NCBI GenBank assembly: GCA_964459145.1
Contig: CAYWKC010000002.1
Location: forward strand, 1 to 56,929
DNA: 56,929 nucleotides
From: an uncultured Candidatus Saccharibacteria bacterium
GTDB taxonomy: Bacteria > Patescibacteriota > Minisyncoccia > Phycocordibacterales > UBA12079
Direction: 5' to 3'
Shown in pieces: positions 10,232 to 29,963 of the stretch. The notes below the pieces were generated by a model. That model saw only the letters and a program-made list of their open reading frames with translations, did not search any database and was not told the DNA's origin. The position numbers were made by a program, and so were the translations under genes. Positions within the stretch are counted from its first letter, which is position 1. Each line of letters opens with the position of its first letter.

Positions 10232-10281
10232 AATATTTTTCTTATGAACAAAGCGAATTAGAAAAATATTACCCTGTTAAA

Positions 10282-10333
10282 TTGAATTTCTGTGAAATTC
10301 AAACCATTTAATTTTTTGTTAAAAAATTAAATG
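10282..10333 (-). other. Two adjacent perfect AT-rich hairpins in the adaptor-RND intercistronic spacer
   Basis: TTGAATTTC-TGT-GAAATTCAA (10282-10302) and CATTTAATTTTTT-GTT-AAAAAATTAAATG (10305-10333). Confidence 0.4.
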
Positions 10334-10372
10334 ATATTTAACATGGATCACCTAACCCACTTTGTGTATAAA

Positions 10373-12013
10373 TTACTTGACTACTTCCACTGCTTGCCCT
10401 TCTTGCAATCCTCTAGCATCCGTTATAATTTTCATATCAACACTGACTCCTTCTGAAATTATAATCTTTCCTCCAAGAATTGAACCCAACACCACAGGAT
10501 GTGCTACCAACTTGTTTTCTCTGTCAATTGTATAAACAACAGTTCTATCAGCTCCAATTTTAATAGCTGAAATTGGCACCGAAAAATCGACAATGACTTG
10601 GCCTTCTGATGAAGACCTTTGCAACAATAAAGACACTGATTGCCCATTGGTTAGAGAGATTTCTGAATCAGCCACACTAATTTCAACTTTTATTTTTTTA
10701 GTTTGAGGATCAAGAGAAGGGGCTATATTTTTAATTACCCCCTGCCAATTGGAACCAATGGCAACTGTTGAACCAACTTTTATGTCATTTCTATCTTCCT
10801 CGGTAATATAAGTAATTATTTCTAAAGTTTTATTATTAGCTAAAGTAACCACTGGAATAAAAGCAGAAACAAAGTCCCCTGACTCTAATTCAAGAGAGTT
10901 AATAGTCCCACTAATGGGAGCCCTAATGATAGTTTTTTCTAAACTGGCGTAAGCTGATTGTAAACCCGCTTCGGCCTGTTTTAATTGAGCTTCAGCAATA
11001 ATAACATCTTCACTCCTTCCTCCCGCTTCAGCTTGATCATAATTTAATTGAGCAATTTCTAAAGCTGATTCAGTATTATTCAAACCACTCTTCGTGGCAG
11101 AAAGAGTACTAACAGCTAAATTAATAGTTGTCCTAACTAAACTAATATTAGCTTTCCAAGTATTAATAGTTGTTTCAGATAAATTAGAATTAGGAGCTAA
11201 AGCATTAACAGCTAAAGCTAAATTATTGAGAAAAATTCTAATTGAATCAACATCACTACTGGCTTTGTCTAATTTTTCAATTAAATCACTACCCGCACTT
11301 AAGGTATCTAATTCTACATCCCAATTGTCTAACATTTTTTCAATAAGGAATCTCCCCCATTCAATATCAATTTCCAATTGTGAACTATACACCGAAAATA
11401 ACACTTGTGGATTATCCTCACGAGGATTTCTAAACATAATGTCTATTTTATTTCTCACAGAATCATCTATTTTAACAAAAGTATCATTTAACACATTGAT
11501 TGCTGAGATTTTAGTTTCGTTTAAGGTTTTTTGGGAATTATCTAAAGTGGTTTTTAAAATGGAAAGTTGTTCATCCCTCCCCCCCTTCTTTATTTTATCC
11601 AAACTGGCTTGAGCCACCTCTACATTAGCTTTAGCTTGAGTAACAGCTGACCTTTGCGACCAATTATTTATTTCTGCAATAACTTGGTCAACATAAACAA
11701 AATCGCCTAATTTTTTATACAAACCAATCACTTCACCTGACGTTTGAGAATAAATAGTCGCCGAAGATTGAGATTGAACTTCTCCCAACAGTGGCAAAGG
11801 GTCATTATTCAAAGATAAATCCCGAATTGACATTACACTGACTTGTCTAATATCTGAATCAATTCCATCCACGACGGTGCCTTGAATAATTATCAATTGT
11901 TGATAAAAAACAACAACTAAAATAGCGAAAATAAGCAAAATTAAAATCTTTTGGTTACGACGCAATTCTTTAATTTTAGTCATTTTATTTTGTAGGGTCT
12001 TTAAATTTAACAT
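10373..12013 (-). CDS. RND/ABC efflux periplasmic adaptor (membrane-fusion protein, HlyD-like) with an unusually long coiled-coil insert
   Basis: N-terminal TM anchor, a lipoyl-like half (SGEVIGLYKKLGDFVYVDQVIAEI ... APISGTINSLELESGDFV) and about 230 aa of helical repeats between the halves. Confidence 0.8.
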   Translation of the reverse strand: MLNLKTLQNKMTKIKELRRNQKILILLIFAILVVVFYQQLIIIQGTVVDGIDSDIRQVSVMSIRDLSLNNDPLPLLGEVQSQSSATIYSQTSGEVIGLYKKLGDFVYVDQVIAEINNWSQRSAVTQAKANVEVAQASLDKIKKGGRDEQLSILKTTLDNSQKTLNETKISAINVLNDTFVKIDDSVRNKIDIMFRNPREDNPQVLFSVYSSQLEIDIEWGRFLIEKMLDNWDVELDTLSAGSDLIEKLDKASSDVDSIRIFLNNLALAVNALAPNSNLSETTINTWKANISLVRTTINLAVSTLSATKSGLNNTESALEIAQLNYDQAEAGGRSEDVIIAEAQLKQAEAGLQSAYASLEKTIIRAPISGTINSLELESGDFVSAFIPVVTLANNKTLEIITYITEEDRNDIKVGSTVAIGSNWQGVIKNIAPSLDPQTKKIKVEISVADSEISLTNGQSVSLLLQRSSSEGQVIVDFSVPISAIKIGADRTVVYTIDRENKLVAHPVVLGSILGGKIIISEGVSVDMKIITDARGLQEGQAVEVVK

Positions 12014-12848: not shown

Positions 12849-13229
12849 ATGAAAGATTATGACAATTGGAATAAAAAGAAAAAAGAAGCAAACGAAGAAA
12901 TTCCTAGGCTATATACTGTGCGAGAAATATGGTGGTGTCGTTTTGGTGTTAACATAGGATTTGAACAGGACGGAAATGGAAAAGATTTTTTAAGACCCGC
13001 TGTTATAGTGCGTTCATTTGGCGCCAATATATGCTTAGTGATACCGTTAACAACGTCAAAACAGAAACATCCTTTACGCATAACTATTGGGAAGATTCAA
13101 GGAGAAAATGCAAGTGTGATACTTTCACAACTAAGAATATTTGACACCCGACGTCTTGTTGAAAAAATGGGGTTTCTTGATAAAAATAAATTCAATGAAT
13201 TAAGAAAAGCCGTTAGAAATTTATTCTAA
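12849..13229 (+). CDS. PemK/MazF-family endoribonuclease toxin with a lysine-rich N-terminal extension
   Basis: Alignable by eye to EndoA/MazF: REIWWCRFGVNIGFEQDGNGKDFLRPAVIV / VIPLTTSKQ / SVILSQLRIFDTRRL. Confidence 0.8.
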   Translation: MKDYDNWNKKKKEANEEIPRLYTVREIWWCRFGVNIGFEQDGNGKDFLRPAVIVRSFGANICLVIPLTTSKQKHPLRITIGKIQGENASVILSQLRIFDTRRLVEKMGFLDKNKFNELRKAVRNLF

Positions 13230-13238: not shown

Positions 13239-13339
13239 TAAATCTTATCTCCTCCTTGCGGAGGTAAGGCCGAAGCCACTTGTACTTATATACTAACAAA
13301 GCCCAAAAAAAAGTCAACCCTACTATTCTTATAATTAGT

Positions 13340-13717
13340 ATGTCCAACCCAACAATAAATGAAAAAGTTATATATCCTGAATTATCCTACAAAATTACAG
13401 GTATTCTTTTTGCTGTCCATAATGAACTAGGTCAATATGCAAGAGAAAAACAATATGGTGATTTATTGGAAGAAAAGTTAAAAGAGACAAAATTACCTTA
13501 TAAAAGAGAGCTGATAGTCTCTAACTCTGGAAATATCTTAGATATTGTCATTAACAATCAAATAGTTCTAGAACTCAAAACAGTCAGAATAATCACAAAA
13601 GATAACTATCGACAAATACAGAACTATCTTCAAACAACTGGTATTAAATTGGGATTACTAGTGAATTTTAGAAGTAAATATTTAAAACCAATCCGCATAA
13701 TCCGTGTTGATTCATAA
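13340..13717 (+). CDS. GxxExxY-family protein (PD-(D/E)XK nuclease fold)
   Basis: ILFAVHNELGQYAREKQYGDLLEEKL and ILDIVINNQIVLELKTV...IQNYLQTTGIKLGLLVNF match the family pattern. Start moved to ATG 13340 (M21 of the tracked ORF). Confidence 0.75.
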   Translation: MSNPTINEKVIYPELSYKITGILFAVHNELGQYAREKQYGDLLEEKLKETKLPYKRELIVSNSGNILDIVINNQIVLELKTVRIITKDNYRQIQNYLQTTGIKLGLLVNFRSKYLKPIRIIRVDS

Positions 13718-13741: not shown

Positions 13742-13824
13742 ATTCGTAAATATTCGCATTGTTCATAGGGATCATTCGTATATTCGTATGTATATCTATA
13801 TTTGTGTCATTCGCATTATTCGTA
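13742..13824 (+). promoter_or_regulatory. Six direct copies of YATTCGYA arranged as three close pairs, immediately upstream of the Wzt-like start
   Basis: ATTCGTA or ATTCGCA at 13742, 13752, 13774, 13782, 13809 and 13818. Within-pair spacing is 10, 8 and 9 bp. The start codon is at 13832. Confidence 0.5.
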
Positions 13825-13831
13825 TATTTGT

Positions 13832-15106
13832 ATGTCAAACTCACCCATTATTTCAGTTAAAAACATTTCCAAAAAATACAATATTACCCACCAGCAAGGT
13901 GGTTATGTTGCCATACGAGATGTTATGGCTAATATCGCCAAAAAACCCTTTTCTTTTCTTAAAAAGAAAGTCAGAAAGATGACGGGGAGAGAAACCAAAG
14001 AAGAGTTCTGGGCTTTAAAAGATATTAATTTTGAAATCCACCAAGGTGAGGCGGTGGGAATTATCGGGGCCAATGGAGCTGGAAAATCAACCCTCTTAAA
14101 AATCCTCACTGGCATTACTCCCCCTACCACTGGAAAAATTAAAATGCATGGCAAGGTCGCTTCCCTTTTGGAAGTTGGGACTGGCTTTCACGGAGAATTA
14201 ACTGGACGTGAAAATATTTTTTTGAATGGAGCTATTTTAGGGATGACCAAGAATGAAATCGCAAAAAAATTTGATGCTATTGTGGAATTTTCTGGTGTAG
14301 AAAAATTTATAGATACACCAGTTAAAAGATATTCTTCTGGGATGTTAGTCCGCCTTGGTTTTTCTGTCGCTGCCCATATGGAACCTGATATTCTTCTGGT
14401 AGATGAAGTTTTAGCTGTTGGAGACGCTGATTTCCAAAAAAAATGTCTTGGCAAAATGGACGAGGTCACCCACGAAGGTGGCCGAACTATTCTCTTCGTC
14501 AGCCACAATATGGATGCCATCCAAAAACTTTGTAAAAAAACTATCCTCCTCAAAGACGGCCAGATTGAAATGGTTGGAGAAACTAAAAATGTAATTAGTA
14601 GATATTTGAACAACAAAAAAGAACTAACTAATACATCTTTGCAAGACCGAACTGACCGAAGAGGAACCGGTAAAGTTATTTTTACAAATTGTGAAATTTT
14701 ATTATCAGACTCAAAAAAAATTAAATTACAAATAAGTTATTTAAATAAAACTAACAAAGAATATAAAAATATAAAAGTATCAGTTGACATCATAGATAGC
14801 AACGACTTAAGTTTAAGTAATCTAACAAATAATACTTTAAATCAGAAAATCGACTTAAATAAAGAATTAGGAACAATTGGTCTAGAAATAAATAATATAA
14901 ATCTAACAAGTGGGCAATATTACATATCTTTATTTTTAGCAATGGATGAATCAAATTCTGAAATATTTGATTGGGTTTCAAAAGCAACAAAAATAACAAT
15001 AAACAACAATAATTTTTATAAGACAAATAAACTACCTCCAATAAAAAGTCCTGTTTTATTAAATTTTAAGTATGGAATGGAAACAAAAATCTCTAAAATA
15101 CTATGA
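13832..15106 (+). CDS. Polysaccharide/teichoic-acid export ABC ATPase (Wzt/TagH-like) with a C-terminal extension of about 170 aa
   Basis: Walker A GANGAGKST, signature YSSGM, Walker B ILLVDEVLAVGD. Start set to ATG 13832 (MSNSPIISVKNISKKY); the upstream extension only translates the repeat array. Confidence 0.9.
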   Translation: MSNSPIISVKNISKKYNITHQQGGYVAIRDVMANIAKKPFSFLKKKVRKMTGRETKEEFWALKDINFEIHQGEAVGIIGANGAGKSTLLKILTGITPPTTGKIKMHGKVASLLEVGTGFHGELTGRENIFLNGAILGMTKNEIAKKFDAIVEFSGVEKFIDTPVKRYSSGMLVRLGFSVAAHMEPDILLVDEVLAVGDADFQKKCLGKMDEVTHEGGRTILFVSHNMDAIQKLCKKTILLKDGQIEMVGETKNVISRYLNNKKELTNTSLQDRTDRRGTGKVIFTNCEILLSDSKKIKLQISYLNKTNKEYKNIKVSVDIIDSNDLSLSNLTNNTLNQKIDLNKELGTIGLEINNINLTSGQYYISLFLAMDESNSEIFDWVSKATKITINNNNFYKTNKLPPIKSPVLLNFKYGMETKISKIL

Positions 15107-16101
15107 AAGATAAAGCACAAACTAGAAATAAACAACTAAATACCCCCATTCTTTTTATGATTTTTAATAGGCCCGAGATAACCCAACAAGTTTTTAGAGA
15201 AATTAAAAAAGCCAAACCTAAACAACTTTTCATAGCTGCCGACGGGCCAAAGACAAACCAACCTAAGGAAATAAAGTTATGTCTTGAAACAAGAAAAATA
15301 AAAGAAGAGATTGACTGGTCTTGTGAAGTTAAAATTTTATTCAGAGATAAAAATCTAGGTTGTAAAATTGCTGTCAGCTCAGCCATTAACTGGTTTTTCG
15401 AAAATGTAGAACAAGGCATAATCTTAGAAGATGATTGTCTTCCCTCCCAATCTTTTTTTTGGTTTTGCGAAGAATTACTTAAAAAATATAAAGACAATCA
15501 AAAAATAATGCACATAGCAGGGATGACTTATGTCGAAAAAACAAACAATACAAAAAATTACAGTTACCACTTCGCTAGAATAGGTGGTATTTGGGGCTGG
15601 GCAACCTGGAGAAGAGCTTGGAAATTATATGAACCAGAAATGGAAAGTTTTCCTCAAGTTAAAAAAGAAAGGATATTTGATGATTTGTTTATTGGAGAAA
15701 ATAAACTTAAAAAAATATATCTGAGTTGGTTTAATAAGGCATATAAAAATACACACACATGGGACTATCAATGGACATACACAAAAATAATTAATAATTC
15801 CATAAATATAATGCCAGCTAAAAATTTAGTTAGAAATATTGGTTTGGGTGTAACTGGAGCAACCCACACAATTGAACAATCGAAGAGATATTCACAAATG
15901 GAATTAAATGAGTTAAAATTCCCCCTAATACACCCAAAATTTATCGTGATTGATAGAAAATTTAATTATGCTAATTTTAAATATACCACTAAGAAAACAT
16001 CACGAAGTGTATTTATTGATTATTCAAAAAGGATAACTTATTATATTTCTCCGATTTTACCAAAATGGTTAAGAAAAATTTTAAAAAATATAAAAAAGTA
16101 A
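15103..16101 (+). CDS. GT-A-fold glycosyltransferase, GnT-I/HlpA-like (paralogue of 29964-30947)
   Basis: NTPILFMIFNRPEITQQVF...LFIAADGP...ILEDDCLP (EDD acidic motif)...GIWGWATWRRAW. Confidence 0.6.
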   Translation: MKDKAQTRNKQLNTPILFMIFNRPEITQQVFREIKKAKPKQLFIAADGPKTNQPKEIKLCLETRKIKEEIDWSCEVKILFRDKNLGCKIAVSSAINWFFENVEQGIILEDDCLPSQSFFWFCEELLKKYKDNQKIMHIAGMTYVEKTNNTKNYSYHFARIGGIWGWATWRRAWKLYEPEMESFPQVKKERIFDDLFIGENKLKKIYLSWFNKAYKNTHTWDYQWTYTKIINNSINIMPAKNLVRNIGLGVTGATHTIEQSKRYSQMELNELKFPLIHPKFIVIDRKFNYANFKYTTKKTSRSVFIDYSKRITYYISPILPKWLRKILKNIKK

Positions 16102-16103
16102 TT

Positions 16104-17294
16104 ATGGGAAATTCAAAAAAAAGACAAATAAATTTATCTGTTCGCGCACATACAATTCCAAAATTTTATATTTTAGAAATTGATGAAGTGGCAAATAAGT
16201 TAATTGATATTGGAAAGGATGTTATTAAATTAAATTTAGGAAAATCAGAGTTACCTTTGCCAAAATGTGTTGCCGATGAAATGTCCACAAAAATATATGA
16301 TAGTGTAAAAAGAGAATTAATCGAACCAAAGGGATTGGAAGTTTTGCGAGAAAAAATTGCTGATTTGCATAATAAAAAAAGTAAAATAAGAATTAGCCCT
16401 AATCAAATATTTATAAATCATGGCACAAGCCCATTCTTTCTTTCATTGTTGTTATTATTAATCAACCCAGGAGAAGAAGTTCTATTTCCACTTCCTTATT
16501 ATCCAAGCTATATTGCTGGCGCGAATTTGGCTGGTGCAAAAAATAGATTTTACAACATAAAAAATGGCAAAATAGATTTGAATAATTTTGAAAAGCAATT
16601 TAGATCTAGAAAAATAAAAATAATTTTTTTAAATTCGCCCGGCAACCCTTATGGCAATATTCTTTCAAAAGAAGAATTAAAAAAAATTCTAGATATTGTA
16701 GACGGAAAAGCAATTATTATATCGGATGAAATTTATGATGAATTTACCTATGCAAATAATTTTATTTCTATATTAGAGGTTTGTGAGTCAAAAAGAGATA
16801 ACATTGTAATTTTAAATGGTTTCTCTAAAACTTATCATATGTACACCAGAAGGCTAGGGTATGCAATTGTGCCCATGGCACTTACTTCCGCTCTTTTGAA
16901 ATTTCAACAACATAATTTGGTTTGTATCGATGCAATAACTCAATTTGGAGGATTAACTGCTTTAAATAATATTGATAACATCCGCAAAGAAACCAAAGAT
17001 GAAATCATAGATTTCAATAACAGGTTAGAAGATTGCAAAAAAATTATAGATTCCACCAAACTAAAGCTAATCAGACCAGAAGGAGGCTTTTATATGTGTG
17101 TGGATGTTTCTGCATATATTAATGATGAGACTCCAACTTCTTTGCTGTTAGCAAAAAAAATTCTTGACAATACATATGTAGCCGTAACTCCTAGCGAAGA
17201 TTTTGGAATTGATAATTTTTTTAGAATTAGTTTAACTTGTTCAAAGGTTGTCGAAGGAGTTGATAGAATATGCAGATACTTAAATAAACTATAA
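16104..17294 (+). CDS. PLP-dependent aminotransferase, class I/II
   Basis: LNSPGNPYGN, ISDEIYDEF and GFSKTYHMYTRRLGY (Schiff-base Lys context). Start at ATG 16104, 2 nt after the upstream stop. Confidence 0.8.
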   Translation: MGNSKKRQINLSVRAHTIPKFYILEIDEVANKLIDIGKDVIKLNLGKSELPLPKCVADEMSTKIYDSVKRELIEPKGLEVLREKIADLHNKKSKIRISPNQIFINHGTSPFFLSLLLLLINPGEEVLFPLPYYPSYIAGANLAGAKNRFYNIKNGKIDLNNFEKQFRSRKIKIIFLNSPGNPYGNILSKEELKKILDIVDGKAIIISDEIYDEFTYANNFISILEVCESKRDNIVILNGFSKTYHMYTRRLGYAIVPMALTSALLKFQQHNLVCIDAITQFGGLTALNNIDNIRKETKDEIIDFNNRLEDCKKIIDSTKLKLIRPEGGFYMCVDVSAYINDETPTSLLLAKKILDNTYVAVTPSEDFGIDNFFRISLTCSKVVEGVDRICRYLNKL

Positions 17295-17298
17295 AAAT

Positions 17299-18030
17299 AT
17301 GAATACTAATTTAAAAGTGGTTGTTTGTGCTGCTGGTCAAGGCAAAAGAATATCAGATATTACTACAAATTGTCCTAAACCAATGATAAAAGTTGGTAGA
17401 AAATCAATACTCGAATATATGTTAGATAATTTTTCCGCTTTTGGATTGAAAGAAATAATAATTATCGTTGGATATCAAGCCGAGCACATCGTTAACTCAA
17501 TCGGGGAAAAATATAAAAACTGTCAAATAACTTATATCTACAATAAAGACTTTGAGTCCACAAATAACATTTATTCTCTTTGGCTTGCAAAAAAAGAGAT
17601 AACAAACGGTATGATTTTTTTTAATGCAGATATAATTTTAAATCGAGGAATAATTAAAAAAGTTTTATCCTCTGTTCACCAAGAAAGTATCGTTGTTGAT
17701 TTTGACCATATTATTGAAGACTCCGTAAAAGCAGTTTATGAAGGCGATAATCTAATCAGGATAGGAAAAGAAGTTACAGGAAAAAAAATTGGTTGGGCCA
17801 TAGGAATTTACAAACTTTCTCAATTAGCAAGTGAAAAATATTTTGAAATATCTGAAAGACTTTTTGAAATTGAAAAAAATAAGAATGTCTCTTTTGTAGT
17901 TCCTTTTGAGAAAATGATTAAAACATTCTCAATTAAAGCAGTTCCCGTTGATAATTTACCTTGGGTAGAAATAGACACTCTAGAAGATTACAAATATGCA
18001 CTTAAAAAAATAGACAGTATTTTAAAATAA
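17299..18030 (+). CDS. Sugar-/alcohol-phosphate nucleotidyltransferase (LicC/cytidylyltransferase-like)
   Basis: VVCAAGQGKRISD...PKPMIKVGRKSILEY is the N-terminal NTP-transferase signature. WVEIDTLEDY near the C-terminus. Confidence 0.7.
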   Translation: MNTNLKVVVCAAGQGKRISDITTNCPKPMIKVGRKSILEYMLDNFSAFGLKEIIIIVGYQAEHIVNSIGEKYKNCQITYIYNKDFESTNNIYSLWLAKKEITNGMIFFNADIILNRGIIKKVLSSVHQESIVVDFDHIIEDSVKAVYEGDNLIRIGKEVTGKKIGWAIGIYKLSQLASEKYFEISERLFEIEKNKNVSFVVPFEKMIKTFSIKAVPVDNLPWVEIDTLEDYKYALKKIDSILK

Positions 18031-18031
18031 T

Positions 18032-19372
18032 ATGATTTTTACTAATCACGATAAAATTGCAATATCTGAAGAAAGAAAAAAGGTTCTTCATTTTGCTGAG
18101 CATGGAATAATTACTGTTTTACCAAGAAAATTCATGCGGGAAAAAATAAAATTGGTTGGTAATAAGTTAAAAATATCCAACGATTTGATTGACATAAAAA
18201 ACAAAAGGATATTTGTAATTGGAGCTGGAAAGGCCTCAGCTATGATGGCAGTTGAATTGGAAAAAATATTAGGAATTAAAAAAATTATTGATGGAATTGT
18301 AGTTACTAATGACAAGTTTTCAAAACCAAAAAAAATTAAAATACACTTGGCGGATCACCCAATACCGTCCTCTAGAGGTACAATAGGAGTCAAAAAAATA
18401 CTGAATTTAAAAAAAAAGTATAATATTGATAAAAATGATTTGATTATATCGCTCTTATCTGGAGGAGGTTCTTCTCTTGCTCCTCTTCCGGCCGATGGAG
18501 TTACCTTAGATGATAAAATTAAAATGGTAAATATATTAATCAGCAGCGGAGCAAATGTTAATGAAATGACTACATTAAAAAAGAAAATATCCAAAGTAAA
18601 GGGAGGAAAACTCGCACAATATTTTTTCCCTACACCAATAATCTCTTTAATATTATCTGATGTTGTAGGTGATAACCCGACAGTGATTGCCTCAGGCCCA
18701 CTTACCTTTGATACTACAAGTTTTCAAGACGCTTGGAAAATAATTAAAAAATATAGGATTGAAAAATCCCTTCCTAAATCAATAATTTCTTTAATTGAAA
18801 AAAATAAATTTACAAAAAATTTAGACCAAAATTTTAGCCATGTAAAGCAGTATATTTTGGCTAATAACCATATTGCGATAGAAAGTATTAAAAAAATCGC
18901 GTTAAAAGAAAACCTTAAAATACAGACCGAAGAGGAAATTGAAGGAGAAGTTCAAAAAATTGCTCAAAAAATCTGTCTTAAGATTTTATCTAAACCCATA
19001 AATGAACCGTCTTTGTTTTTATTTGGCGGAGAGTGTACGGTTACTTTACCAAAAATCCACGGGGAGGGAGGAAGAAATCAAGAATTTGCACTATCTTTTC
19101 TTAATACCATCAATAAATTAAATATAAAAAATAAATGGTGTCTTGCTTCAATCGCCACCGACGGAATCGACTTTATTAAAGAATCATCTGGTGCAATAGT
19201 TGATAATTATTCTTTTAAATTCATAAATAGAAAAAAACTTAAAATAAATGAATATTTAAAAAACCATAACTCATATAATTTTCTTAAATTAATTAACTCA
19301 AATATAAAAATTGGACGACCGACAGGAACAAATGTTTGTGACTTGATTATTCTTTTGATATTACCTAAATAA
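18032..19372 (+). CDS. Glycerate 2-kinase family protein (GckA/TtuD; DUF4147 + MOFRL)
   Basis: IGAGKASAMMA, LLSGGGSSL, KKISKVKGGKL, LILSDVVGD, GGECTVTL...GEGGRNQEFALSF, TDGIDF, TGTNVCD. Confidence 0.8.
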   Translation: MIFTNHDKIAISEERKKVLHFAEHGIITVLPRKFMREKIKLVGNKLKISNDLIDIKNKRIFVIGAGKASAMMAVELEKILGIKKIIDGIVVTNDKFSKPKKIKIHLADHPIPSSRGTIGVKKILNLKKKYNIDKNDLIISLLSGGGSSLAPLPADGVTLDDKIKMVNILISSGANVNEMTTLKKKISKVKGGKLAQYFFPTPIISLILSDVVGDNPTVIASGPLTFDTTSFQDAWKIIKKYRIEKSLPKSIISLIEKNKFTKNLDQNFSHVKQYILANNHIAIESIKKIALKENLKIQTEEEIEGEVQKIAQKICLKILSKPINEPSLFLFGGECTVTLPKIHGEGGRNQEFALSFLNTINKLNIKNKWCLASIATDGIDFIKESSGAIVDNYSFKFINRKKLKINEYLKNHNSYNFLKLINSNIKIGRPTGTNVCDLIILLILPK

Positions 19373-19510
19373 ATTAGAATTTATGAAAACTCAGACAAAC
19401 ATTTTAATTTCTTCCAAGACATTAATAATAAATACTCTAAAAATTGATTTATAAAATATATTAATTTTGAGATACTTTTTTATTAAAACACTAAATATTT
19501 AGATTAAGAG

Positions 19511-20809
19511 ATGATAAAAAAATTTTTAAAAAAAATACCACATTTAAGATTTTGTTTTAATAAAATAAAACAAATTCTAAACAAAATAAAAATAATAAAT
19601 GAACCTATTAGAATTTATCTTGCACATAAAAAAATAAAAAAGGTTATAGAACTAAAAAAAGAAAAAATTTTAAATGGCAGTAAAATTAGAGTTGCTTTTT
19701 TTATTACTCAAAAACAATTGTGGAACTCTCAAACAGTTTACGATAATTTACTCTCTAATGACTTGTTTGAACCTGTTATTGTAACTTTTCCAAACTGTGA
19801 AGACAAAGTAAATAGCAAAAAAGTTACTTGCGAAGATAATTATAATTTCTTTGAAAGTAAAAAAATGAATGTTGTTCTGGGGTATGATATAAATAACAAT
19901 TTATTTTTAAATTTAAATGACATTAATGCTGATATAATATTTTATGACCAGACAACCCCCAATTTGCCAAACAATCTGTTATGGGATGAAGCAGGTAAAA
20001 ATTCTTTAGTATGTTATATCCCCTATGGTTATAAAGTAGCCAAATTTTATGAAGCCCATTTTAATTCAAAACTTACTAATAATTGTTGGGCTATCTTCGC
20101 TGAAAGTGATTGGCATAAGAAACAATTTAAAAAATTCGGATTAGCGAAAGGGAAAAATGTGGTTGTTTCCGGTTATCCAAAATTAGATGTTTATAATATA
20201 AAAAATGATAATTTAGATAGCGATAAAAATACAAAGAAAATAATCATCTGGGCACCTCATTGGTCAATAAAAAATAGTTCTATAGAGTATTCAACATTTG
20301 ATAAATATTATAAATTTTTCATTCAATATGCAACCAACAATAAAGATATATTTTGGGTATTTAAACCACACCAAAGATTAAGATATTATCTAGAAGAAAT
20401 AGGGTTTATGACAAAAGATAAAATTAATGATTATTATAAACAATGGGATAAACTACCCAACTGTCAATTTTACAATGATAGTGACTATTTTGATTTATTT
20501 AAAAATTCAAATGCTCTAATAACTGACTGTGGCTCTTTTCTCGCAGAGTATCTACCAACAAAAAATCCAATTATGTTATTAGTTAGTGGTAATTCAGCTG
20601 GATATAATGAAATAGGAGACAAGTTAGTAAATACTTATTATAAAGCTTTTAATGAAAATGATGTCAAAAAATTTATCAATAATGTTGTAATTAAGAATAA
20701 TGATTTTCTGAAGGAAAAAAGATTAAAAAACTTAGATCTTGTTCAACCGAATCCTGGTGGTGCAGGTAAATTTATCGTAAATCATATCCGGAAAATACTT
20801 ATTAAGTAA
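19511..20809 (+). CDS. CDP-alcohol (glycerol/ribitol)-phosphotransferase-like protein, TagB/TagF family
   Basis: IIWAPHWS (compare APTWR), FKPHQRL, and NALITDCGSFLAEYLPTKNPIMLL (compare LITDYSS...P). Confidence 0.65.
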   Translation: MIKKFLKKIPHLRFCFNKIKQILNKIKIINEPIRIYLAHKKIKKVIELKKEKILNGSKIRVAFFITQKQLWNSQTVYDNLLSNDLFEPVIVTFPNCEDKVNSKKVTCEDNYNFFESKKMNVVLGYDINNNLFLNLNDINADIIFYDQTTPNLPNNLLWDEAGKNSLVCYIPYGYKVAKFYEAHFNSKLTNNCWAIFAESDWHKKQFKKFGLAKGKNVVVSGYPKLDVYNIKNDNLDSDKNTKKIIIWAPHWSIKNSSIEYSTFDKYYKFFIQYATNNKDIFWVFKPHQRLRYYLEEIGFMTKDKINDYYKQWDKLPNCQFYNDSDYFDLFKNSNALITDCGSFLAEYLPTKNPIMLLVSGNSAGYNEIGDKLVNTYYKAFNENDVKKFINNVVIKNNDFLKEKRLKNLDLVQPNPGGAGKFIVNHIRKILIK

Positions 20810-20888
20810 TAAATTAAAAAAAATAAATATAAAATGAAAGAAATAAAAAAAATCAAAACCTATTATTAGATAAATTTGAAATGCCAAG

Positions 20889-21617
20889 ATGATAAAAAGA
20901 ATATCTAATAAAATATTAAGAAAGTTTGGTTATTCACCGATAAAAGGTGGCTTAAATTATATCAATGCAAAAAATACGATTGAACAAGCGAAGAAAAGAA
21001 AATTGACTATATGCGAATATTTAGAAAGCACAAAAGATGATAAGAGAAAAATAGGGAGAAGAGATAGAATTATCAATATGATGGAATCGTTAGATATATT
21101 TTCTAATGCAAAAAACATATGTGAGATTGGCACAGGCACAGGAATGTATCTTGAGAAAATAATTAAAAAAACTCTTGTTCAAACATACGAGGTATATGAA
21201 ACTGCTATTGATTGGAAAGAATACCTTAATTTTGAATATAAAACAAAAATCAAACACCTGATTCTTCATGATGCAGATGGAATTACCCTACGTCAAACAA
21301 GATCAGCTACAATAGATTTGGTACACGCTCACGCTGTATTTGTTTATATTCCTTTTATTGATATTTATAATTATTTAAAAGAATGTGTGCGTATTTGTAA
21401 GAAAGAGGGGTATATTGTTTTTGATGCAATCTCTGATGACAAACTTAATGTAGAAGCTGTTCAAAAATGGTCTAATATTAACTGTAGATTTGCGGTAATA
21501 ACACCTCATAAATTTATTTTAGATTTTATTAAAAAAAATAATCTCATTCTGTTAAATTCTTTTAATGAAGTTTATGGTGGGACTTGTTCTAAATATTACA
21601 TATTACAAAAGAAATAA
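20889..21617 (+). CDS. Class I SAM-dependent methyltransferase
   Basis: ICEIGTGTGMYLEKII motif I. DLVHAHAVFVYIP...KEGYIVFD. Confidence 0.6.
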   Translation: MIKRISNKILRKFGYSPIKGGLNYINAKNTIEQAKKRKLTICEYLESTKDDKRKIGRRDRIINMMESLDIFSNAKNICEIGTGTGMYLEKIIKKTLVQTYEVYETAIDWKEYLNFEYKTKIKHLILHDADGITLRQTRSATIDLVHAHAVFVYIPFIDIYNYLKECVRICKKEGYIVFDAISDDKLNVEAVQKWSNINCRFAVITPHKFILDFIKKNNLILLNSFNEVYGGTCSKYYILQKK

Positions 21618-21645
21618 ACTTAATTACAATAATTTTAAAAATAAT

Positions 21646-22083
21646 ATGAGTACAAATATAGAAAAAATAATATATAAAAACAAAATTCTTGCAATTATTA
21701 TAAAAAATGATTTCAAACAAGAGGGAATTGCTTTTTTTACTGATAATAATTTCTCTCAGCAGTTAGGTTATATGAATAGACCTGAGGGATATATAATAGC
21801 CCCCCATCGACATAATTTGGTGCCTAGGAAAGTCGTTCTAACACAAGAAACATTATTCATAAAATCTGGTAAAATTCGTGTTGATTTCTATGATGATAAA
21901 CAAAATTATCTGGAAAGTAGGATTGTTGTAAAAGGTGACATAGTATTATTAGCTACTGGTGGACACGGTTTTAAGATGATAGAGCGAAGTGAAATAGTCG
22001 AGGTAAAACAGGGTCCCTATGTTGGGGAAATGGACAAGGTAAGATTTGATCAAATAGGTGAATCTAAATTAAATATTAAATAA
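21646..22083 (+). CDS. Cupin-fold protein (candidate sugar-nucleotide isomerase/epimerase)
   Basis: APHRHN...TQETLFIKSGKIRVDFYD...GDIVLLATGGHGF is a cupin two-motif pattern. Start moved to ATG 21646 to remove the overlap with the upstream gene. Confidence 0.55.
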   Translation: MSTNIEKIIYKNKILAIIIKNDFKQEGIAFFTDNNFSQQLGYMNRPEGYIIAPHRHNLVPRKVVLTQETLFIKSGKIRVDFYDDKQNYLESRIVVKGDIVLLATGGHGFKMIERSEIVEVKQGPYVGEMDKVRFDQIGESKLNIK

Positions 22084-22085
22084 CC

Positions 22086-22829
22086 ATGTCTAAAAATTTT
22101 CAAATATATTCAAAATATTACGATTTACTTTATAAGGACAAAGATTATACTTCTGAAGTAAATTATGTAATAAATAAAATTAAAAAATTTTCACCAAAAA
22201 CAAATTCTATTTTAGAGTTTGGCTCAGGTACTGGCAGACATGGTATTCTTTTACAAAAAAAGGGATTCAATGTTTTTGGATTAGACCAAAGCGGATATAT
22301 GATAGCAGAAGCAAAGAAACGAGGCTTATCTTGCCAAATAGCTGATATCAGCAATTTTAAATTAAAAGAAAAATATGATGCTGTTATTTCTCTTTTTCAT
22401 GTAGTTAGTTACCTTACCGACAATGAAAAATTAATCGCCACCTTCATCAGCGCAAATAAACATCTAAACAAAAACGGATTATTTCTATTTGATGTTTGGT
22501 ACTCTCCTGCTGTATATAAACAAAAAGCATCACCGCAAGTTAAAAAGATGCAAAATAAAGAAATCACCATCACACGAGTAGCTACATCTAAAATAGATAT
22601 AAACAACAACATAATAGATGTACAATATGCAATAACTGCAAAAGACCTAGCAACGGGGAAAATAAGTAAGCTATCTGAGGATCATCCAATGAGACATTTT
22701 AGTATCCCTGAAATTGATTTATTAGCAAGACTTACAGGATTTGAAATATTAAAAACTGAAGAATTTTTAACAGGGAATAAACCTTCTGAGAATACTTGGG
22801 GAGTTTGTTTTATTTTAAAAAAAATATAA
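22086..22829 (+). CDS. Class I SAM-dependent methyltransferase, TylM1/DesVI-like sugar N-methyltransferase candidate
   Basis: YSKYYDLLYKDKDY...ILEFGSGTGRH...GLDQS...ISLFHVVSYL...GLFLFDVW...TWGVCFIL. Confidence 0.65.
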   Translation: MSKNFQIYSKYYDLLYKDKDYTSEVNYVINKIKKFSPKTNSILEFGSGTGRHGILLQKKGFNVFGLDQSGYMIAEAKKRGLSCQIADISNFKLKEKYDAVISLFHVVSYLTDNEKLIATFISANKHLNKNGLFLFDVWYSPAVYKQKASPQVKKMQNKEITITRVATSKIDINNNIIDVQYAITAKDLATGKISKLSEDHPMRHFSIPEIDLLARLTGFEILKTEEFLTGNKPSENTWGVCFILKKI

Positions 22830-22833
22830 AAAT

Positions 22834-23940
22834 ATGATACCAGTAAACACCCCTTTATTAAATGGCAATGAGAAAAAATATTTATTAGATTGTATCCACA
22901 CTGGATGGATATCTTCTGAGGGGCCCTTTGTTAAAAAATTTGAAGAAAAATTTTCTAAATATGTTAATCGTAAATTTGGAATTGCTGTTTCAAGTGGTTC
23001 TGGTGCTTTGGATATAGCAGTTCAAGCATTAAAAATTAAAAAGGGTGACGAAGTAATAATGCCTACTTTTACTATCATCTCCCCTGCCCAATCAATCATT
23101 AGGATAGGGGCTAAACCTGTTTTAGTTGATAGTGACCCAATTACTTTCAATATAGACGTCTCTCAAATTGAGAGAAAAATAACATCTAAAACAAAAGCAA
23201 TCTTGGTTGTGCATATCTATGGGTTACCAGTAGATATGGATCCTATTTTAAGATTATGTAAAAAATATAAATTATATCTAATTGAAGATGCAGCCGAAAT
23301 GCATGGACAAACATATAAAGGTAAAAAATGTGGTTCATTTGGAGATATTAGTATATTTAGTTTTTATCCTAATAAACACATTACTACTGGAGAAGGTGGA
23401 ATGATAATAACAGATAATTCTGAATTGACCGAACGTTGTAGTAAACTTCGTAATTTAGCTTTTGAACCAAAAGGTAGAAGATTTATTCATAAAGAATTGG
23501 GTTGGAATTACAGAATGACAAACATGCAAGCTGCTTTAGGTTTAGCTCAACTAGAAAAAATTGAAAAACATATCATAAAAAAAAGAAAAATAGGAAATTC
23601 TTATCAAGAAGGGTTAAAAAATATACGAGGATTTCAATTACCCTTAGCAAAAACAAAATACGCTGAAAATATATATTGGATTTTCCCTTTAGTAGCAGAA
23701 TCACAAGAATTATGTGAAAAAACCACAATAGAATTAAATAAATTAGGTATAGGCACTCGCCCTTTCTTTTGGTGTATGCATGAACAACCCGTTTTCAGAA
23801 ATATGGGTTTATTTAAAAAAGAAAATTATCCCGTGGCAGAAAAATTGGCAAGAAATGGATTTTATATCCCAAGTGGTTTAGGTTTAGATTCGAAAGAAAT
23901 CAAAAAAGTGATAAATACACTAATAAAATTGAAGAAATGA
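22834..23940 (+). CDS. DegT/DnrJ/EryC1/StrS-family sugar aminotransferase (PLP)
   Basis: GNEKKYLLDCI..GWISSEGPFVKKFE, DAAEMHG, SFYPNKHITTGEGGMI, GWNYRMTNMQAALGLAQL. Confidence 0.9.
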   Translation: MIPVNTPLLNGNEKKYLLDCIHTGWISSEGPFVKKFEEKFSKYVNRKFGIAVSSGSGALDIAVQALKIKKGDEVIMPTFTIISPAQSIIRIGAKPVLVDSDPITFNIDVSQIERKITSKTKAILVVHIYGLPVDMDPILRLCKKYKLYLIEDAAEMHGQTYKGKKCGSFGDISIFSFYPNKHITTGEGGMIITDNSELTERCSKLRNLAFEPKGRRFIHKELGWNYRMTNMQAALGLAQLEKIEKHIIKKRKIGNSYQEGLKNIRGFQLPLAKTKYAENIYWIFPLVAESQELCEKTTIELNKLGIGTRPFFWCMHEQPVFRNMGLFKKENYPVAEKLARNGFYIPSGLGLDSKEIKKVINTLIKLKK

Positions 23941-25130
23941 GAAAATTAAGGATAGGAATTTGGATAAATAGTAATATTAAACCAGAAGCAGGCGGTGGTT
24001 ATGATTATTATAATGAATTATTAAAAGCTTTAAATAATTATTCTTTTAAAAATGCTGAAATTATTTTCCTCAGCAATAAAAAAATAACTGTCGATAATTT
24101 TAAAATTGAAGTTATAGATGAACTAAAAGATAAATCTTTATTTTTCAAAATAATAAAAAAAATTAGCCCTTTATTTAAAAATATAAGAAAGGTTGAGGAT
24201 AAGATAAAAAATAAACAAAAAGATAAACTTAAAAAAACAATTTATAAATATGCTGATATTATCTATTACTTAACTCCGGGATGTGTTTACCCTGATTTTC
24301 CATATATTTATACACTCTGGGATTTAGGACATCTTAATTCCTATGCTTTTCCAGAATTTAGTATGAATGGAAATTTTGAAGGGAGAAAAAAACACTGTGA
24401 TTTGTTTCTTCAAAAAGCTTTGACAATATTTACAGAATCAGAAACAGGGAAAAAAGAATGTAAAAAATACTTAAATATAAATGAAAAAAGAATCAAGATT
24501 GTTCCCATTTTTCCTTCTGGAATAGTTAATCCAAAATGTATTTCAATAAAACCAGAAAAAATAAAAGATGGTGAATTTTTTATACACTATCCAGCTCAAT
24601 ATTGGACACATAAAAATCATTACAATCTATTATCAGCAATGATTCTTATAATCAAAGATTTTCCTAAAATTAAATTAATTTTAACTGGTTCTGACAAAGG
24701 AAATAAAAATTATATTCTAGAGACAATTAAAAAAAACGGATTAAAAAATAATATCATAGACCTTGGTTTTGTGCCAAAAGAAGAATTAAAATGGCTTTAT
24801 GAAAATTCTCAAGGCTTAGTTATGCCGACATTATTAGGTCCAACTAACATACCGTTACTTGATGCTTCAAAATTAGGATGTCCTGTGGCATGCACCAATT
24901 TACCAGGACATATTGAACAATTAGGAAACTATGGATATTATTTCAACGGGACAGATCCAAAAGATATTTCAATTCAGGTTATTAAAATGATAAATGATAA
25001 AAAAAATAATGTTAAAAGAGAATATAATAATAAATTTAACATTAAAAATACACTAAATTACCTTGACAAAGCTTTTACAGAAATAAAACAAATAAGATTT
25101 TGTTGGGGAGAGAATGATAAAATATTTTAA
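23937..25130 (+). CDS. Glycosyltransferase family 4 (GT-B)
   Basis: C-terminal GT-B block LILTGSDKGN...GFVPKEELKWLYENSQGLVMPTLLGPTNIPLLDASKLGCPV. ATGA overlap with the upstream gene. Confidence 0.75.
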   Translation: MRKLRIGIWINSNIKPEAGGGYDYYNELLKALNNYSFKNAEIIFLSNKKITVDNFKIEVIDELKDKSLFFKIIKKISPLFKNIRKVEDKIKNKQKDKLKKTIYKYADIIYYLTPGCVYPDFPYIYTLWDLGHLNSYAFPEFSMNGNFEGRKKHCDLFLQKALTIFTESETGKKECKKYLNINEKRIKIVPIFPSGIVNPKCISIKPEKIKDGEFFIHYPAQYWTHKNHYNLLSAMILIIKDFPKIKLILTGSDKGNKNYILETIKKNGLKNNIIDLGFVPKEELKWLYENSQGLVMPTLLGPTNIPLLDASKLGCPVACTNLPGHIEQLGNYGYYFNGTDPKDISIQVIKMINDKKNNVKREYNNKFNIKNTLNYLDKAFTEIKQIRFCWGENDKIF

Positions 25131-25265
25131 ATTATGAGTTTAATAAAAGAAAAAATAATGTTGTTAGAAACTTCACATTTGGTATTATGACAAATAATTA
25201 CCTCAAACTTTATAAAAAATTAATAAATACTTACAAAATTTTAAAGCCAAATAGTTAGTTTTTAT

Positions 25266-26183
25266 ATGATAACAATTTTTACAATTCCAAAATCATTTAC
25301 AAATCCGCATATTAATATAATCCAACGAAACGCTATTAAAAGTTGGGTACTTTTACAGCCTGCTTGTGAAATCATCTTAGTTGGGAATGATGACGGAGTG
25401 GCTGAAATTGCCAGAGAGTTTGGGGTAAGGCAGATCCCCAATGTTGAATGTAATAAATTTGATACCCCCTTATTGAATTCTGCTTTTGACTTAGTAAGAA
25501 AAGTTAGCCAAAATGATATCTTAGCGTATGTAAATTCCGATATTATTCTTTTTGATGATTTTATAGATTCTTTAAAATATTTGCCCAAAAAGTTTTTAGT
25601 CGTTGGACAAAAATGGGATTTAAATATCACAAAATTTATAGATTTTAATAATTCCAATTGGGACAAATTATTAAAAGAAGAAACAAAAGAAAAAGGTAAA
25701 TTACAGTCACCGGCTGGAAGTGATTATTTTATATTTAGGAAACAATCTTTTGAAAATTTACCCGCTTTTGCCGTAGGAAGAATTGGTTGGGATAATTGGA
25801 TGATTTATGAAGGAAGAAGACAGAAAATGCCAGTAATAGACGCCACACAAGCAATAATGGCTATCCATCAAAATCATGATTACTCTCACCAAAACGATAA
25901 CGGAAAAAACATCAGTACTAATTCTGAAGCTCAAAAAAATATCAAACTAGCTAAAGGTAGAAAACATTTCTTTGTATTAAAACATACAAATTATGAATTA
26001 ACCTTTACGGGTTTAATAAAAAAGAAATTTAATTTAAATTTATTTAAACAATACCTTCAGAACACCCCCGAAATATTGCCTAGTCACAAATTTTTTTGGC
26101 AGTTCTTATACCCAATTTTGTTTGTTTCAAATAAATTTATAAAACTTATATGGAAAAACCATCAAAAAAATATGATTATTTAA
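25266..26183 (+). CDS. Hypothetical protein, possible GT-A-like glycosyltransferase
   Basis: ITIFTIPK...IQRNAIKSW...ILVGNDDG...YVNSDIILFDD (DxD-like). No firm family assignment. Confidence 0.4.
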   Translation: MITIFTIPKSFTNPHINIIQRNAIKSWVLLQPACEIILVGNDDGVAEIAREFGVRQIPNVECNKFDTPLLNSAFDLVRKVSQNDILAYVNSDIILFDDFIDSLKYLPKKFLVVGQKWDLNITKFIDFNNSNWDKLLKEETKEKGKLQSPAGSDYFIFRKQSFENLPAFAVGRIGWDNWMIYEGRRQKMPVIDATQAIMAIHQNHDYSHQNDNGKNISTNSEAQKNIKLAKGRKHFFVLKHTNYELTFTGLIKKKFNLNLFKQYLQNTPEILPSHKFFWQFLYPILFVSNKFIKLIWKNHQKNMII

Positions 26184-27256
26184 TTGTCGGGGCTGGACTG
26201 TTTGGCTGTACTTTTGCATATTCAGCAAAAAATAATGGGAAAAAATGCCTCGTGATTGATAAGCGCCCACATCTTGGCGGAAATGTTTATTGTGAAAAGA
26301 TAGAAGGTATTAATGTCCATAAATATGGAGCACATATTTTCCACACATCAGACAAACAGGTTTGGAATTTTGTAAATAAATTTGTAGTATTTAATAGATA
26401 TACTCATTCTGTATTGGCAAATTACAAAGGACAAATATACAGCTTGCCTTTTAACATGTTTACTTTTTATCAACTCTGGGGAACTCAAACCCCAGAGCAA
26501 GCTAAGAAAAAAATAGCTGAACAAGTTAAAAAAGCCGGAGTAAAAAAACCAAAAAATTTAAAAGAACAAGCTATTTCCCTTGTAGGTACGGATATTTATG
26601 AGAAATTAATTAAAGGATATACCGAAAAACAATGGGGACGAAAAACAACTAATCTCCCAGCGTTTATAATAAAAAGGTTGCCCATCAGATTTACTTATGA
26701 TAATAATTATTATAATGATAGCTTTCAAGGAATACCAATTGGTGGATATAATAAATTAATCAATGAACTACTTAAGAATACGGACACTCGATTAAACTGT
26801 GATTTTTTTTCAAATAAATCTGAACTAAGCAAAATTGCAGAAAAAATAGTATTCACTGGAAAGATTGACGAATATTTTAACTATAAATATGGGAAATTGG
26901 CCTACAGAAGTTCACATTTTGAAAACGAGGTCTTGGAAACCAACAATTTTCAAGGACATTCTGTCATAAATTATACTTCCATAGATGCCCCTTTTACACG
27001 CATAATTGAACACAAACACTTTGAATTTGGAACACAACCAAAAACAGTTATTACAAAAGAGTATCCTTTAGAATATCAGGGAGTTGGAGAAGCCTTCTAT
27101 CCGATAAATGATACAAAAAATACCAACCTTTATGAAAAATACAGAAAACTATCTCTAAAAGAGAAAAATATCATTTTTGGAGGAAGATTGGCTGAATATA
27201 AGTATTATGATATGGATCAAGTGATTAAAAAAGCATTAAATCATAAGTTTAAATGA
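26150..27256 (+). CDS. glf: UDP-galactopyranose mutase
   Basis: YDYLIVGAGLFGCTFA (FAD GxGxxG), HKYGAHIFHT, YTEKQWG, GRLAEYKYYDMDQV. Confidence 0.9.
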   Translation: MEKPSKKYDYLIVGAGLFGCTFAYSAKNNGKKCLVIDKRPHLGGNVYCEKIEGINVHKYGAHIFHTSDKQVWNFVNKFVVFNRYTHSVLANYKGQIYSLPFNMFTFYQLWGTQTPEQAKKKIAEQVKKAGVKKPKNLKEQAISLVGTDIYEKLIKGYTEKQWGRKTTNLPAFIIKRLPIRFTYDNNYYNDSFQGIPIGGYNKLINELLKNTDTRLNCDFFSNKSELSKIAEKIVFTGKIDEYFNYKYGKLAYRSSHFENEVLETNNFQGHSVINYTSIDAPFTRIIEHKHFEFGTQPKTVITKEYPLEYQGVGEAFYPINDTKNTNLYEKYRKLSLKEKNIIFGGRLAEYKYYDMDQVIKKALNHKFK

Positions 27257-27687: not shown

Positions 27688-27688
27688 T

Positions 27689-29942: not shown

Positions 29943-29963
29943 CTTGGATTAATTACTTATTAC

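Follow-up and report, generated by a model that had tools for sequence, protein, structure and literature searches.

A putative supply and transfer module for CDP-glycerate in a surface glycan cluster of an ultra-small Saccharibacteria genome

What would a glycerate kinase do inside a gene cluster for glycan synthesis, between an enzyme that activates phosphorylated compounds and one that resembles a teichoic acid polymerase? The question is raised by four genes on contig CAYWKC010000002.1 of an uncultured Candidatus Saccharibacteria bacterium (GCA_964459145.1); the stretch of 56,929 nt analysed here, hereafter the window, is contig 2 of an assembly of 577,910 bp that is estimated to be 98% complete. 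In order, the genes encode a class I/II aminotransferase resembling the pyridoxal phosphate (PLP)-dependent aspartate aminotransferases of type Ib (AspAT-Ib; 16104-17294, + strand, with another possible start at 16065), a nucleotidyltransferase (17299-18030, +), a kinase with DUF4147 and MOFRL domains (18032-19372, +), and a TagF/TagB-family (Glyphos_transf, PF04464) protein (19511-20809, +). The initial annotation of this DNA suggested that the product of the kinase, once activated with a nucleotide, serves the TagF-like enzyme as the source of a phosphoglycerate-type head group, and the comparative evidence favours that suggestion. With modest confidence, we read the four genes as a precursor-supply-and-transfer unit within an ABC-transporter-dependent glycan cluster, one that would make CDP-glycerate and place phosphoglycerate on the glycan. 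The basis of the whole route is gene context, family membership, and published precedent.

A recurrent aminotransferase–nucleotidyltransferase–kinase cassette

Open reading frame calls agree with the initial annotation on four genes that share one orientation and are separated by 4, 1, and 138 nt, and Pfam matches for all four bear out the families that it named. The aminotransferase matches Aminotran_1_2 (PF00155, 191 bits), the nucleotidyltransferase matches NTP_transferase (45.8 bits) and NTP_transf_3 (35.9 bits), and the kinase has the two-domain architecture of its family, DUF4147 (PF13660, 217 bits) followed by MOFRL (PF05161, 94 bits). The TagF-like protein scores 26.3 bits to PF04464 (cut-off 22.1), over profile positions 140-292 of 367 only. 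Nothing resembling a terminator was found in the 138-nt spacer, and the region shows no excess of promoter-like sites over chance.

The first three genes recur together elsewhere. Among the 50 proteins most similar to the window kinase (41-57% identity), seven are NTP_transferase+DUF4147+MOFRL fusions of about 695-708 aa. To define related loci, we used a clade-specific motif pair—GGRNQEF and, 23 residues on, TDGxD[FY]I—as a DNA pattern on metagenome contigs, which yielded 20 loci. A homologue of the nucleotidyltransferase (33-50% identity) lies immediately 5' of the kinase, or is fused to it, in 14 of the 16 loci with enough upstream DNA, and the aminotransferase stands directly 5' of the nucleotidyltransferase in seven metagenomic loci, so that the order aminotransferase–nucleotidyltransferase–MOFRL kinase recurs in unrelated metagenomic contigs. 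Thirteen members of the aminotransferase clade also share contigs with kinase-clade proteins, because the exact sizes of the longest contigs coincide (e.g., 268591, 116271, 72295). These three genes are a conserved unit, associated beyond chance.

The kinase of this unit is not the only MOFRL protein in the genome. A second copy (contig 20, 883-2160), 36-37% identical to that of the window, lies 3 kb from the enolase gene (contig 20, 5147-5944) and is kept in 17 of 18 same-family genomes. When 117 MOFRL proteins were analysed by maximum likelihood, this paralogue and its family orthologues formed a separate clade (SH-aLRT 100), and the window kinase fell inside a 64-row clade (SH-aLRT 100) that contains every member linked or fused to a nucleotidyltransferase. 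Its nearest relative, at 57% identity and within a common 98%-supported subclade, is the kinase of one of the metagenomic loci (L111, protein P0003). The copy beside enolase is the housekeeping glycerate kinase, and the window copy is an accessory paralogue of the MOFRL (class II) glycerate-2-kinase family.

The rest of the module shows the same patchy distribution. Among 400 sampled genomes of the phylum, no relative of the window kinase exceeds 44% identity, and no module gene lies near the kinases at or below that value. The aminotransferase, the nucleotidyltransferase, the TagF-like gene, and a kinase of this clade were likewise not found in 20 relatives, three of them of the same genus; from these two results we conclude that the module is an accessory acquisition. 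The aminotransferase would have arrived together with it, since 12 same-family genomes contain no homologue at E 1e-5 or better. Some kinase homologues bear Parcubacteria and Wolfebacteria names. A search for related loci with the window kinase alone gave no match, and ordinary MOFRL genes at no more than 40% identity predominate among the matches listed by a clade-alignment search.

A predicted route to CDP-glycerate

The nucleotidyltransferase is, by its sequence, a LicC/IPCT/CpgD-type (COG1213) cytidylyltransferase. The initial annotation had seen a danger to its proposal in a firm clustering with sugar-1-phosphate enzymes; instead the CTP:phosphocholine cytidylyltransferase LicC (1JYK, 1.6e-16), the inositol-1-phosphate cytidylyltransferase IPCT (2XME, 1.5e-8), and the phosphonate cytidylyltransferase PntC (6PD1, 7e-8), whose substrates are phospho-compounds other than sugar-1-phosphates, are nearest in the PDB, with one weaker match to a glucose-1-phosphate cytidylyltransferase (3.8e-8) and still weaker ones, confined to the N-terminus, to other sugar-1-phosphate enzymes. 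The alignment with LicC spans residues 4-123. A role as a sugar-1-phosphate enzyme was rejected, every NCBIfam model for such enzymes scoring far below its cut-off and LicC being the best solved match. Genome searches found no LicD, TagD, phosphoenolpyruvate (PEP) mutase, or AsnB; the lack of LicD led us to set aside a LicC/LicD phosphocholine system as well, that of TagD a classical TagD/CDP-glycerol supply, and that of PEP mutase a PntC-like phosphonate pathway.

The closest functional precedent is CpgD of Caulobacter crescentus (CCNA_01210), a COG1213-type enzyme shown in 2025 to convert CTP and phosphoglycerate to CDP-glycerate with a preference for D-2-phosphoglycerate (PMC12275187). In its structures (10WG-10WK), T88 and T93 read the cytosine, N90 and N110 contact the ribose and the glycerate, and R16, K26, and D112 are catalytic (PMC13228409). 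The window enzyme has the G-x-G-x-R loop (AAGQGKR, with R17), the catalytic lysine (PK27P), and the N109-A-D111 strand, and in its clade of 21 sequences R17, K27, T88, N90, S93, N109, and D111 are each at least 90% conserved. These residues match R16, K26, T88, N90, T93, N110, and D112 of CpgD by spacing, a correspondence of motifs and not of an alignment; LicC shares several of them and has Asp at the N109 site. We propose that the nucleotidyltransferase, which is the sole NTP_transf_3 gene of the genome, is a CTP:2-phosphoglycerate cytidylyltransferase that makes CDP-glycerate.

The substrate for such an enzyme is what the neighbouring kinase would be expected to produce. The kinase aligns with PH0495 of P. 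horikoshii (1X3L, 237 bits) along the family motifs, and the loss of catalytic residues that the initial annotation had considered as a possible objection has not occurred: the GGGS loop, KGG, SDV.GD, GGE.TV, GGRNQE, TDG.D, and TGTN are invariant in 34 clade members. Within the TDG.D motif, the clade reads TDG.D[FY]I, and some canonical members read TDG.DG. From the established activity of the family, the kinase would phosphorylate D-glycerate to D-2-phosphoglycerate, and we propose it as a dedicated supplier of that compound. The nucleotidyltransferase would then combine D-2-phosphoglycerate with CTP to give CDP-glycerate, a step suggested by the fusion or adjacency of the two enzymes and by the CpgD precedent. 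That the pair makes CDP-glycerate is the part of the route in which we place good confidence.

The origin of the glycerate is less certain. The aminotransferase has the T. maritima AspAT as its best solved relative (1O4S, E 5e-47) and belongs to a clade of 36 proteins at 47-59% identity, below which identity drops to 42% or less. Each of the 119 aligned homologues keeps the PLP-binding lysine (GFSKTY). At the site of a second lysine of 1O4S (NGAKQAL), the 37 clade members all have serine (NNGTSPFF); work on the T. thermophilus AspAT reportedly showed that the lysine of this site binds the distal carboxylate of aspartate or glutamate in type Ib AspATs, and because serine replaces it a true aspartate aminotransferase is unlikely here. 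A CobD-like role as a phospho-amino-acid decarboxylase is less likely as well, with 217 bits to the AspAT-Ib model versus 110 to HisC/CobD. The enzyme may instead convert L-serine to hydroxypyruvate, an assignment that we make tentatively and at slightly less than even confidence. Hydroxypyruvate would then be reduced to D-glycerate by a D-2-hydroxyacid dehydrogenase, for which the sole candidate in this genome is a gene on contig 12.

Related loci suggest how such a supply line could be built. In one of them (L120), a D-2-hydroxyacid dehydrogenase sits between the aminotransferase and the nucleotidyltransferase, and in another (L107) a dehydrogenase 59% identical to it lies directly 5' of the nucleotidyltransferase. 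The L120 protein matches the NCBIfam models for glyoxylate reductase (320 bits), phosphoglycerate dehydrogenase (PGDH, 267 bits), and the glyoxylate/hydroxypyruvate reductase GhrB (240 bits), although none of these scores reaches the cut-off of its model. The locus of the nearest kinase relative, L111, has no aminotransferase; a GAPDH homologue and a HAD phosphatase stand directly 5' of its nucleotidyltransferase and would be another way to glycerate. The feeders of the cassette thus appear interchangeable and would converge on glycerate, through either an aminotransferase and a reductase or GAPDH and a phosphatase. As a separate observation, loci L113/L125 and L110 have the aminotransferase replaced by an enolase-superfamily MR_MLE enzyme, a KduI/IolB-like protein, an SDR, and a GH57-like protein, as if the activated acid were made there from a sugar acid.

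The TagF-like transferase and competing readings

Who would use the activated donor? An AlphaFold2 (AF2) model of the TagF-like protein (pLDDT 94) has as its top match in a fold search TagF itself (3L7K; Z 23.7, with a root mean square deviation of 3.2 across 313 residues). UDP-GlcNAc 2-epimerases, which have the same fold, lie less than 1 Z unit lower (Z 23.2), in effect a tie, and TarL and the TagF-like multienzymes of capsule synthesis reach Z 21.5-22. The PDB yielded no match to this protein by sequence or by profile, and many of its homologues carry a precomputed PF04464 match. Two histidines, H250 and H287, do not vary among 40 homologues, and H287 may correspond to H584 of TagF, whose catalytic residues are H444 and H584, a correspondence by sequence offset only.

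Two lines of evidence tie this protein to the cassette. The genome has one NTP_transf_3 gene, one Glyphos_transf gene, and no CDP-OH_P_transf, LicD, or TagD gene, so the sole candidate maker and the sole candidate user of a CDP-activated donor are neighbours. The search for CDP-alcohol phosphatidyltransferases (CDP-OH_P_transf, PF01066) gave no match in this 98%-complete genome, as would fit a cell that cannot make phospholipid head groups. The second line comes from a fusion protein, P0128 (756 aa). Its N-terminal half is 58% identical to the TagF-like protein of the window, and its C-terminal half is 41% identical (E 9e-67) to the product of the gene on the other side of the cassette, a GT-A-like glycosyltransferase of 332 aa without a Pfam match (15103-16101, +). 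The cassette therefore lies between two genes that are joined elsewhere, and the GT-A protein is probably the working partner of the TagF-like enzyme. A diverged paralogue of the GT-A protein is encoded at 29964-30947; both have no or marginal Pfam matches and are ~40% identical to the C-terminal half of P0128.

The co-occurrence of all four genes, to which the initial annotation had attached weight, holds for the aminotransferase, nucleotidyltransferase, and kinase, in metagenomic loci and in fusions, and fails for the window's TagF-like subfamily, which is in none of the 20 related loci (tblastn, E 1e-4). What these loci encode instead are Glyphos_transf proteins of another subfamily (7 loci), a CDP-alcohol phosphotransferase (8), an AsnB-type amidotransferase (8), and an S-adenosylmethionine (SAM) methyltransferase (9). 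One TagF-like homologue and one aminotransferase homologue occur on contigs of equal size (2711 bp), possibly by chance, and we draw no conclusion from them. The link of the TagF-like enzyme to the cassette draws on its position and on the absence of an alternative CDP-donor user from the genome, and not on recurrence. On these grounds, the TagF-like enzyme, probably with the flanking GT-A protein, would transfer phosphoglycerate to a lipid-linked glycan at the cytoplasmic face. We lean slightly toward this assignment. Amidation to glyceramide was rejected for this genome, which has no AsnB, frequent as AsnB proteins are in the related loci.

Several observations weigh against the route as a whole. 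The kinase falls far below the NCBIfam equivalog cut-offs for glycerate-2-kinase (229 vs 670 bits and 197 vs 550). Since those models are lineage-specific (Thermoplasmata, Thermoproteota), glycerate kinase activity is still possible, but these low scores, together with the low identity to the housekeeping copy, make a shifted substrate possible too. Glycolysis already passes through the product, 2-phosphoglycerate; the genome has enolase, and a His_Phos_1 gene on contig 8 could be a mutase (it is the only candidate, a search of the genome for the cofactor-independent phosphoglycerate mutase, PF01676, having found none), so the need for a dedicated supply is not obvious. Serine aminotransferases usually belong to class V and not to class I. 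The window cassette lacks a dehydrogenase, and the sole 2-Hacid_dh gene of the genome, that on contig 12, is generic, with 33-35% identity to the cassette-linked enzymes. The likeness of the nucleotidyltransferase to CpgD is at the motif level only. Finally, the proteins most similar to the TagF-like enzyme (as much as 67% identity) are in Arcobacteraceae (Arcobacter), Pseudothioglobus, Sphingomonas, and others, and no homologue was seen on contigs of the kinase clade, so the usual donor of this subfamily may differ.

Some of these points would be accommodated if the kinase clade had changed its substrate, so that the cassette activates another hydroxy or amino acid—O-phosphoserine to CDP-serine, for instance, or phospho-lactate, -malate, or -hydroxyglutarate—which the TagF-like enzyme later moves. 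The distance of the clade from housekeeping MOFRL proteins and from the equivalog cut-offs fits such a change, as does a class I aminotransferase, unusual for serine and hydroxypyruvate. The other acid-building enzymes of L113, L125, and L110 point the same way, and AsnB and methyltransferases in relatives would be further tailoring of the head group. Yet the family motifs of the kinase are intact, its nearest relative is fed by GAPDH and a HAD phosphatase, which would yield glycerate and not an amino acid, and the dehydrogenase beside the aminotransferase comes closest to glyoxylate/hydroxypyruvate reductases. A dedicated aminotransferase would moreover be needed for hydroxypyruvate but not for pyruvate, oxaloacetate, or 2-oxoglutarate, which are abundant; and the aminotransferase clade lacks the lysine at the acidic-side-chain site of 1O4S. 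We regard a changed substrate as unlikely.

A second possibility accepts that the three-gene cassette makes CDP-glycerate but assigns it another user, either because the acceptor is a lipid or some other molecule, or because the TagF-like enzyme takes a different CDP donor. In Caulobacter the presumed CDP-glycerate user, CpgA, is a PgsA-like CDP-alcohol phosphatidyltransferase with a sphingolipid acceptor (PMC9393093), and 8 of the 20 related loci encode a member of that family, whereas none of the 20 has the window's TagF-like subfamily; the latter is widespread in Proteobacteria and Campylobacterota, away from the kinase-clade contigs. In this genome, however, no other partners are available, for it encodes neither CDP-OH_P_transf nor LicD nor TagD and only one protein each of the Glyphos_transf and NTP_transf_3 families. 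The cassette is also flanked by the TagF-like and GT-A genes that are fused elsewhere, with no terminator between the genes. We find a different user somewhat less plausible still than a changed substrate.

Very improbable is a meaningless adjacency, with the kinase and aminotransferase serving central metabolism (serine/glycerate salvage to glycolysis) and the nucleotidyltransferase acting on sugar-1-phosphate or phosphocholine: MOFRL kinases and AspAT-like enzymes are indeed ordinary metabolic enzymes, and the nucleotidyltransferase has weak NCBIfam matches to sugar-1-phosphate nucleotidyltransferases, but those models lie far below cut-off with LicC the best solved match, the fusions and gene order are kept across many contigs, a separate housekeeping kinase stands beside enolase, and all three genes were not found in 20 relatives that keep that kinase.

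The glycan cluster and known systems

The surroundings of the four genes indicate where a phosphoglycerate group would end up. All four belong to a long co-oriented run from 13802 to 31779 that also encodes methyltransferases, a DegT aminotransferase, Glf, GtrA, and several glycosyltransferases. The run opens with the gene for a Wzt-type ABC exporter ATPase (13802-15106, +; ABC_tran 77.7 bits), whose C-terminal carbohydrate-binding domain (Wzt_C, 35.2 bits) fits cytoplasmic assembly of the glycan. Upstream of the cassette lie genes for a Wzm-like ABC-2 permease (6230-7057) and a Bac_transf initiating transferase (723-2078). The locus is an ABC-transporter-dependent glycan cluster, and the modified glycan would be exported through Wzm/Wzt. 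Directly 3' of the TagF-like gene, a SAM methyltransferase (20889-21617, +; Methyltransf_11, 29.8 bits) may modify the transferred group; a TagF-like homologue, P0136 (597 aa), is a fusion with a methyltransferase domain. By BLAST, the window methyltransferase has no similarity to the one kept in related cassettes.

Other genes of the window add to the picture of the locus. Between the Wzm and Wzt genes, 7139-12013 (-) encodes an AcrB-type RND pump (1030 aa, 608 bits) and an HlyD-type membrane-fusion protein, a notable pair for an ultra-small genome with a presumed absence of an outer membrane. Just 5' of wzt are genes for a PemK/MazF-type toxin (12849-13229) and a PD-(D/E)XK nuclease-family protein (13280-13717), a hint of mobile or addiction elements where the glycan operon begins or ends. 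The genes at 26150-29942 encode UDP-galactopyranose mutase (Glf), GtrA, a GT2 protein, and a 514-aa protein that weakly matches the LA_3751/LA_3752 putative glycosyltransferase family; they point to galactofuranose and to a lipid-carrier-linked side-branch system like WsfH/WsfD of Paenibacillus alvei. An adjacent divergent glycan block contains a GT11 fucosyltransferase-like gene (35101-35943) and a TOD1/MUCI70 glycosyltransferase-like gene (36832-37569), of families that are mostly eukaryote-associated.

The most likely meaning of the locus is that a bacterium with a tiny genome decorates a cell-surface glycan with phosphoglycerate by means of a borrowed enzyme set, a chemistry so far shown only for a Caulobacter lipid. 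The cassette offers a dedicated kinase fused to a cytidylyltransferase in relatives, interchangeable feeders, and a user of the TagF type instead of the lipid type. If this reading is true, it would provide a gene set for the glycerate-phosphate substituents that are known chemically on S-layer glycans and lipopolysaccharide (LPS) cores (PMC2943079, PMC4052302). It would also mean that bacteria of the candidate phyla radiation (CPR) devote a noticeable share of a 578-kb genome to an anionic surface decoration gained by gene transfer. More speculatively, and to our minds improbably, the GT-A and TagF-like enzymes could alternate to build a teichoic-acid-like polymer of sugar and phosphoglycerate, or else phosphoglycerate could be a cap at the chain end that is read by the carbohydrate-binding domain of Wzt. 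Were the enzymes to alternate, ultra-small bacteria would have a carboxylate-bearing wall polymer, fed from serine by a dedicated aminotransferase–kinase–cytidylyltransferase line.

How does the proposed module compare with systems already described? In the serine cycle, one branch uses a serine-glyoxylate aminotransferase, hydroxypyruvate reductase, and the glycerate 2-kinase GckA to form 2-phosphoglycerate. Locus L120 resembles this branch in having an aminotransferase, a D-2-hydroxyacid dehydrogenase, and a MOFRL kinase in the same order. The differences are the class of the aminotransferase (V in the cycle, I here), the fate of 2-phosphoglycerate (enolase in the cycle, a CDP-ester in the prediction), and the lack of a dehydrogenase in the window.

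Wall teichoic acid and TagF-like capsule systems (TagD/TarI with TagF/TarL; Cps3D/Bcs3) share with the window a CDP-activated donor, a transferase of the GT-B TagF fold, and an ABC-2 exporter. They differ in the donor, which carries glycerol or ribitol and not, as predicted here, a phospho-acid (glycerate), and in the activating enzyme, of the TagD or IspD type there and of the LicC type here.

Phosphoglycerate itself is known from glycans. The LPS core of Shewanella contains phosphodiester-linked glyceric acid (PMC4052302), and the S-layer glycan of P. alvei CCM 2051T has glyceric acid 2-phosphate (GroA-2-P) linked to ManNAc (PMC2943079). The slg cluster of the latter includes WsfP, Wzm/Wzt, wsfA, tagD, an asparagine-synthase homologue, and the multidomain WsfC, in which a TagF-like domain and glycosyltransferase domains are joined; that the TagF-like domain adds GroA-2-P was put forward in 2010, as a prediction only (PMC2943079). 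The cluster is like that of the window in its Bac_transf-type start, cytoplasmic building, and Wzm/Wzt export, and the union of TagF-like and glycosyltransferase domains in WsfC has its counterpart in the TagF-like gene and GT-A gene of the window, fused in P0128. An asparagine-synthase homologue is shared by P. alvei and eight of the related CPR loci, and is missing from the window genome. P. alvei differs in that its listed cytidylyltransferase is of the TagD type (COG0615), and in having no MOFRL kinase, LicC-type enzyme, or aminotransferase. The initial annotation knew of no gene set assigned to such decorations. That statement is overtaken by the WsfC proposal (PMC2943079) and by CpgD (PMC12275187), and stands for the particular combination of a MOFRL kinase, a LicC-type enzyme, and a class I aminotransferase, for which we found no published example.

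The nearest comparison is the CPG2 pathway of Caulobacter, CDP-glycerate appearing in the searchable literature only in the CpgD work. Both systems have a cytidylyltransferase of the COG1213/LicC-IPCT type, the D-2-phosphoglycerate that CpgD prefers is the product expected from a MOFRL kinase, and in both CDP-glycerate is the proposed donor for an anionic envelope component. They part at either end of the pathway. The authors of the CpgD work left open the source of phosphoglycerate and the enzyme that uses the donor; Caulobacter has no known dedicated supplier, whereas in the window a dedicated kinase and an aminotransferase stand beside the nucleotidyltransferase. At the other end, the PgsA-like transferase of Caulobacter belongs to a family absent here by the PF01066 search of the genome. 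The system of the window may thus work like CpgD and CpgA, as a separate arrangement and not a member of the CPG2 pathway.

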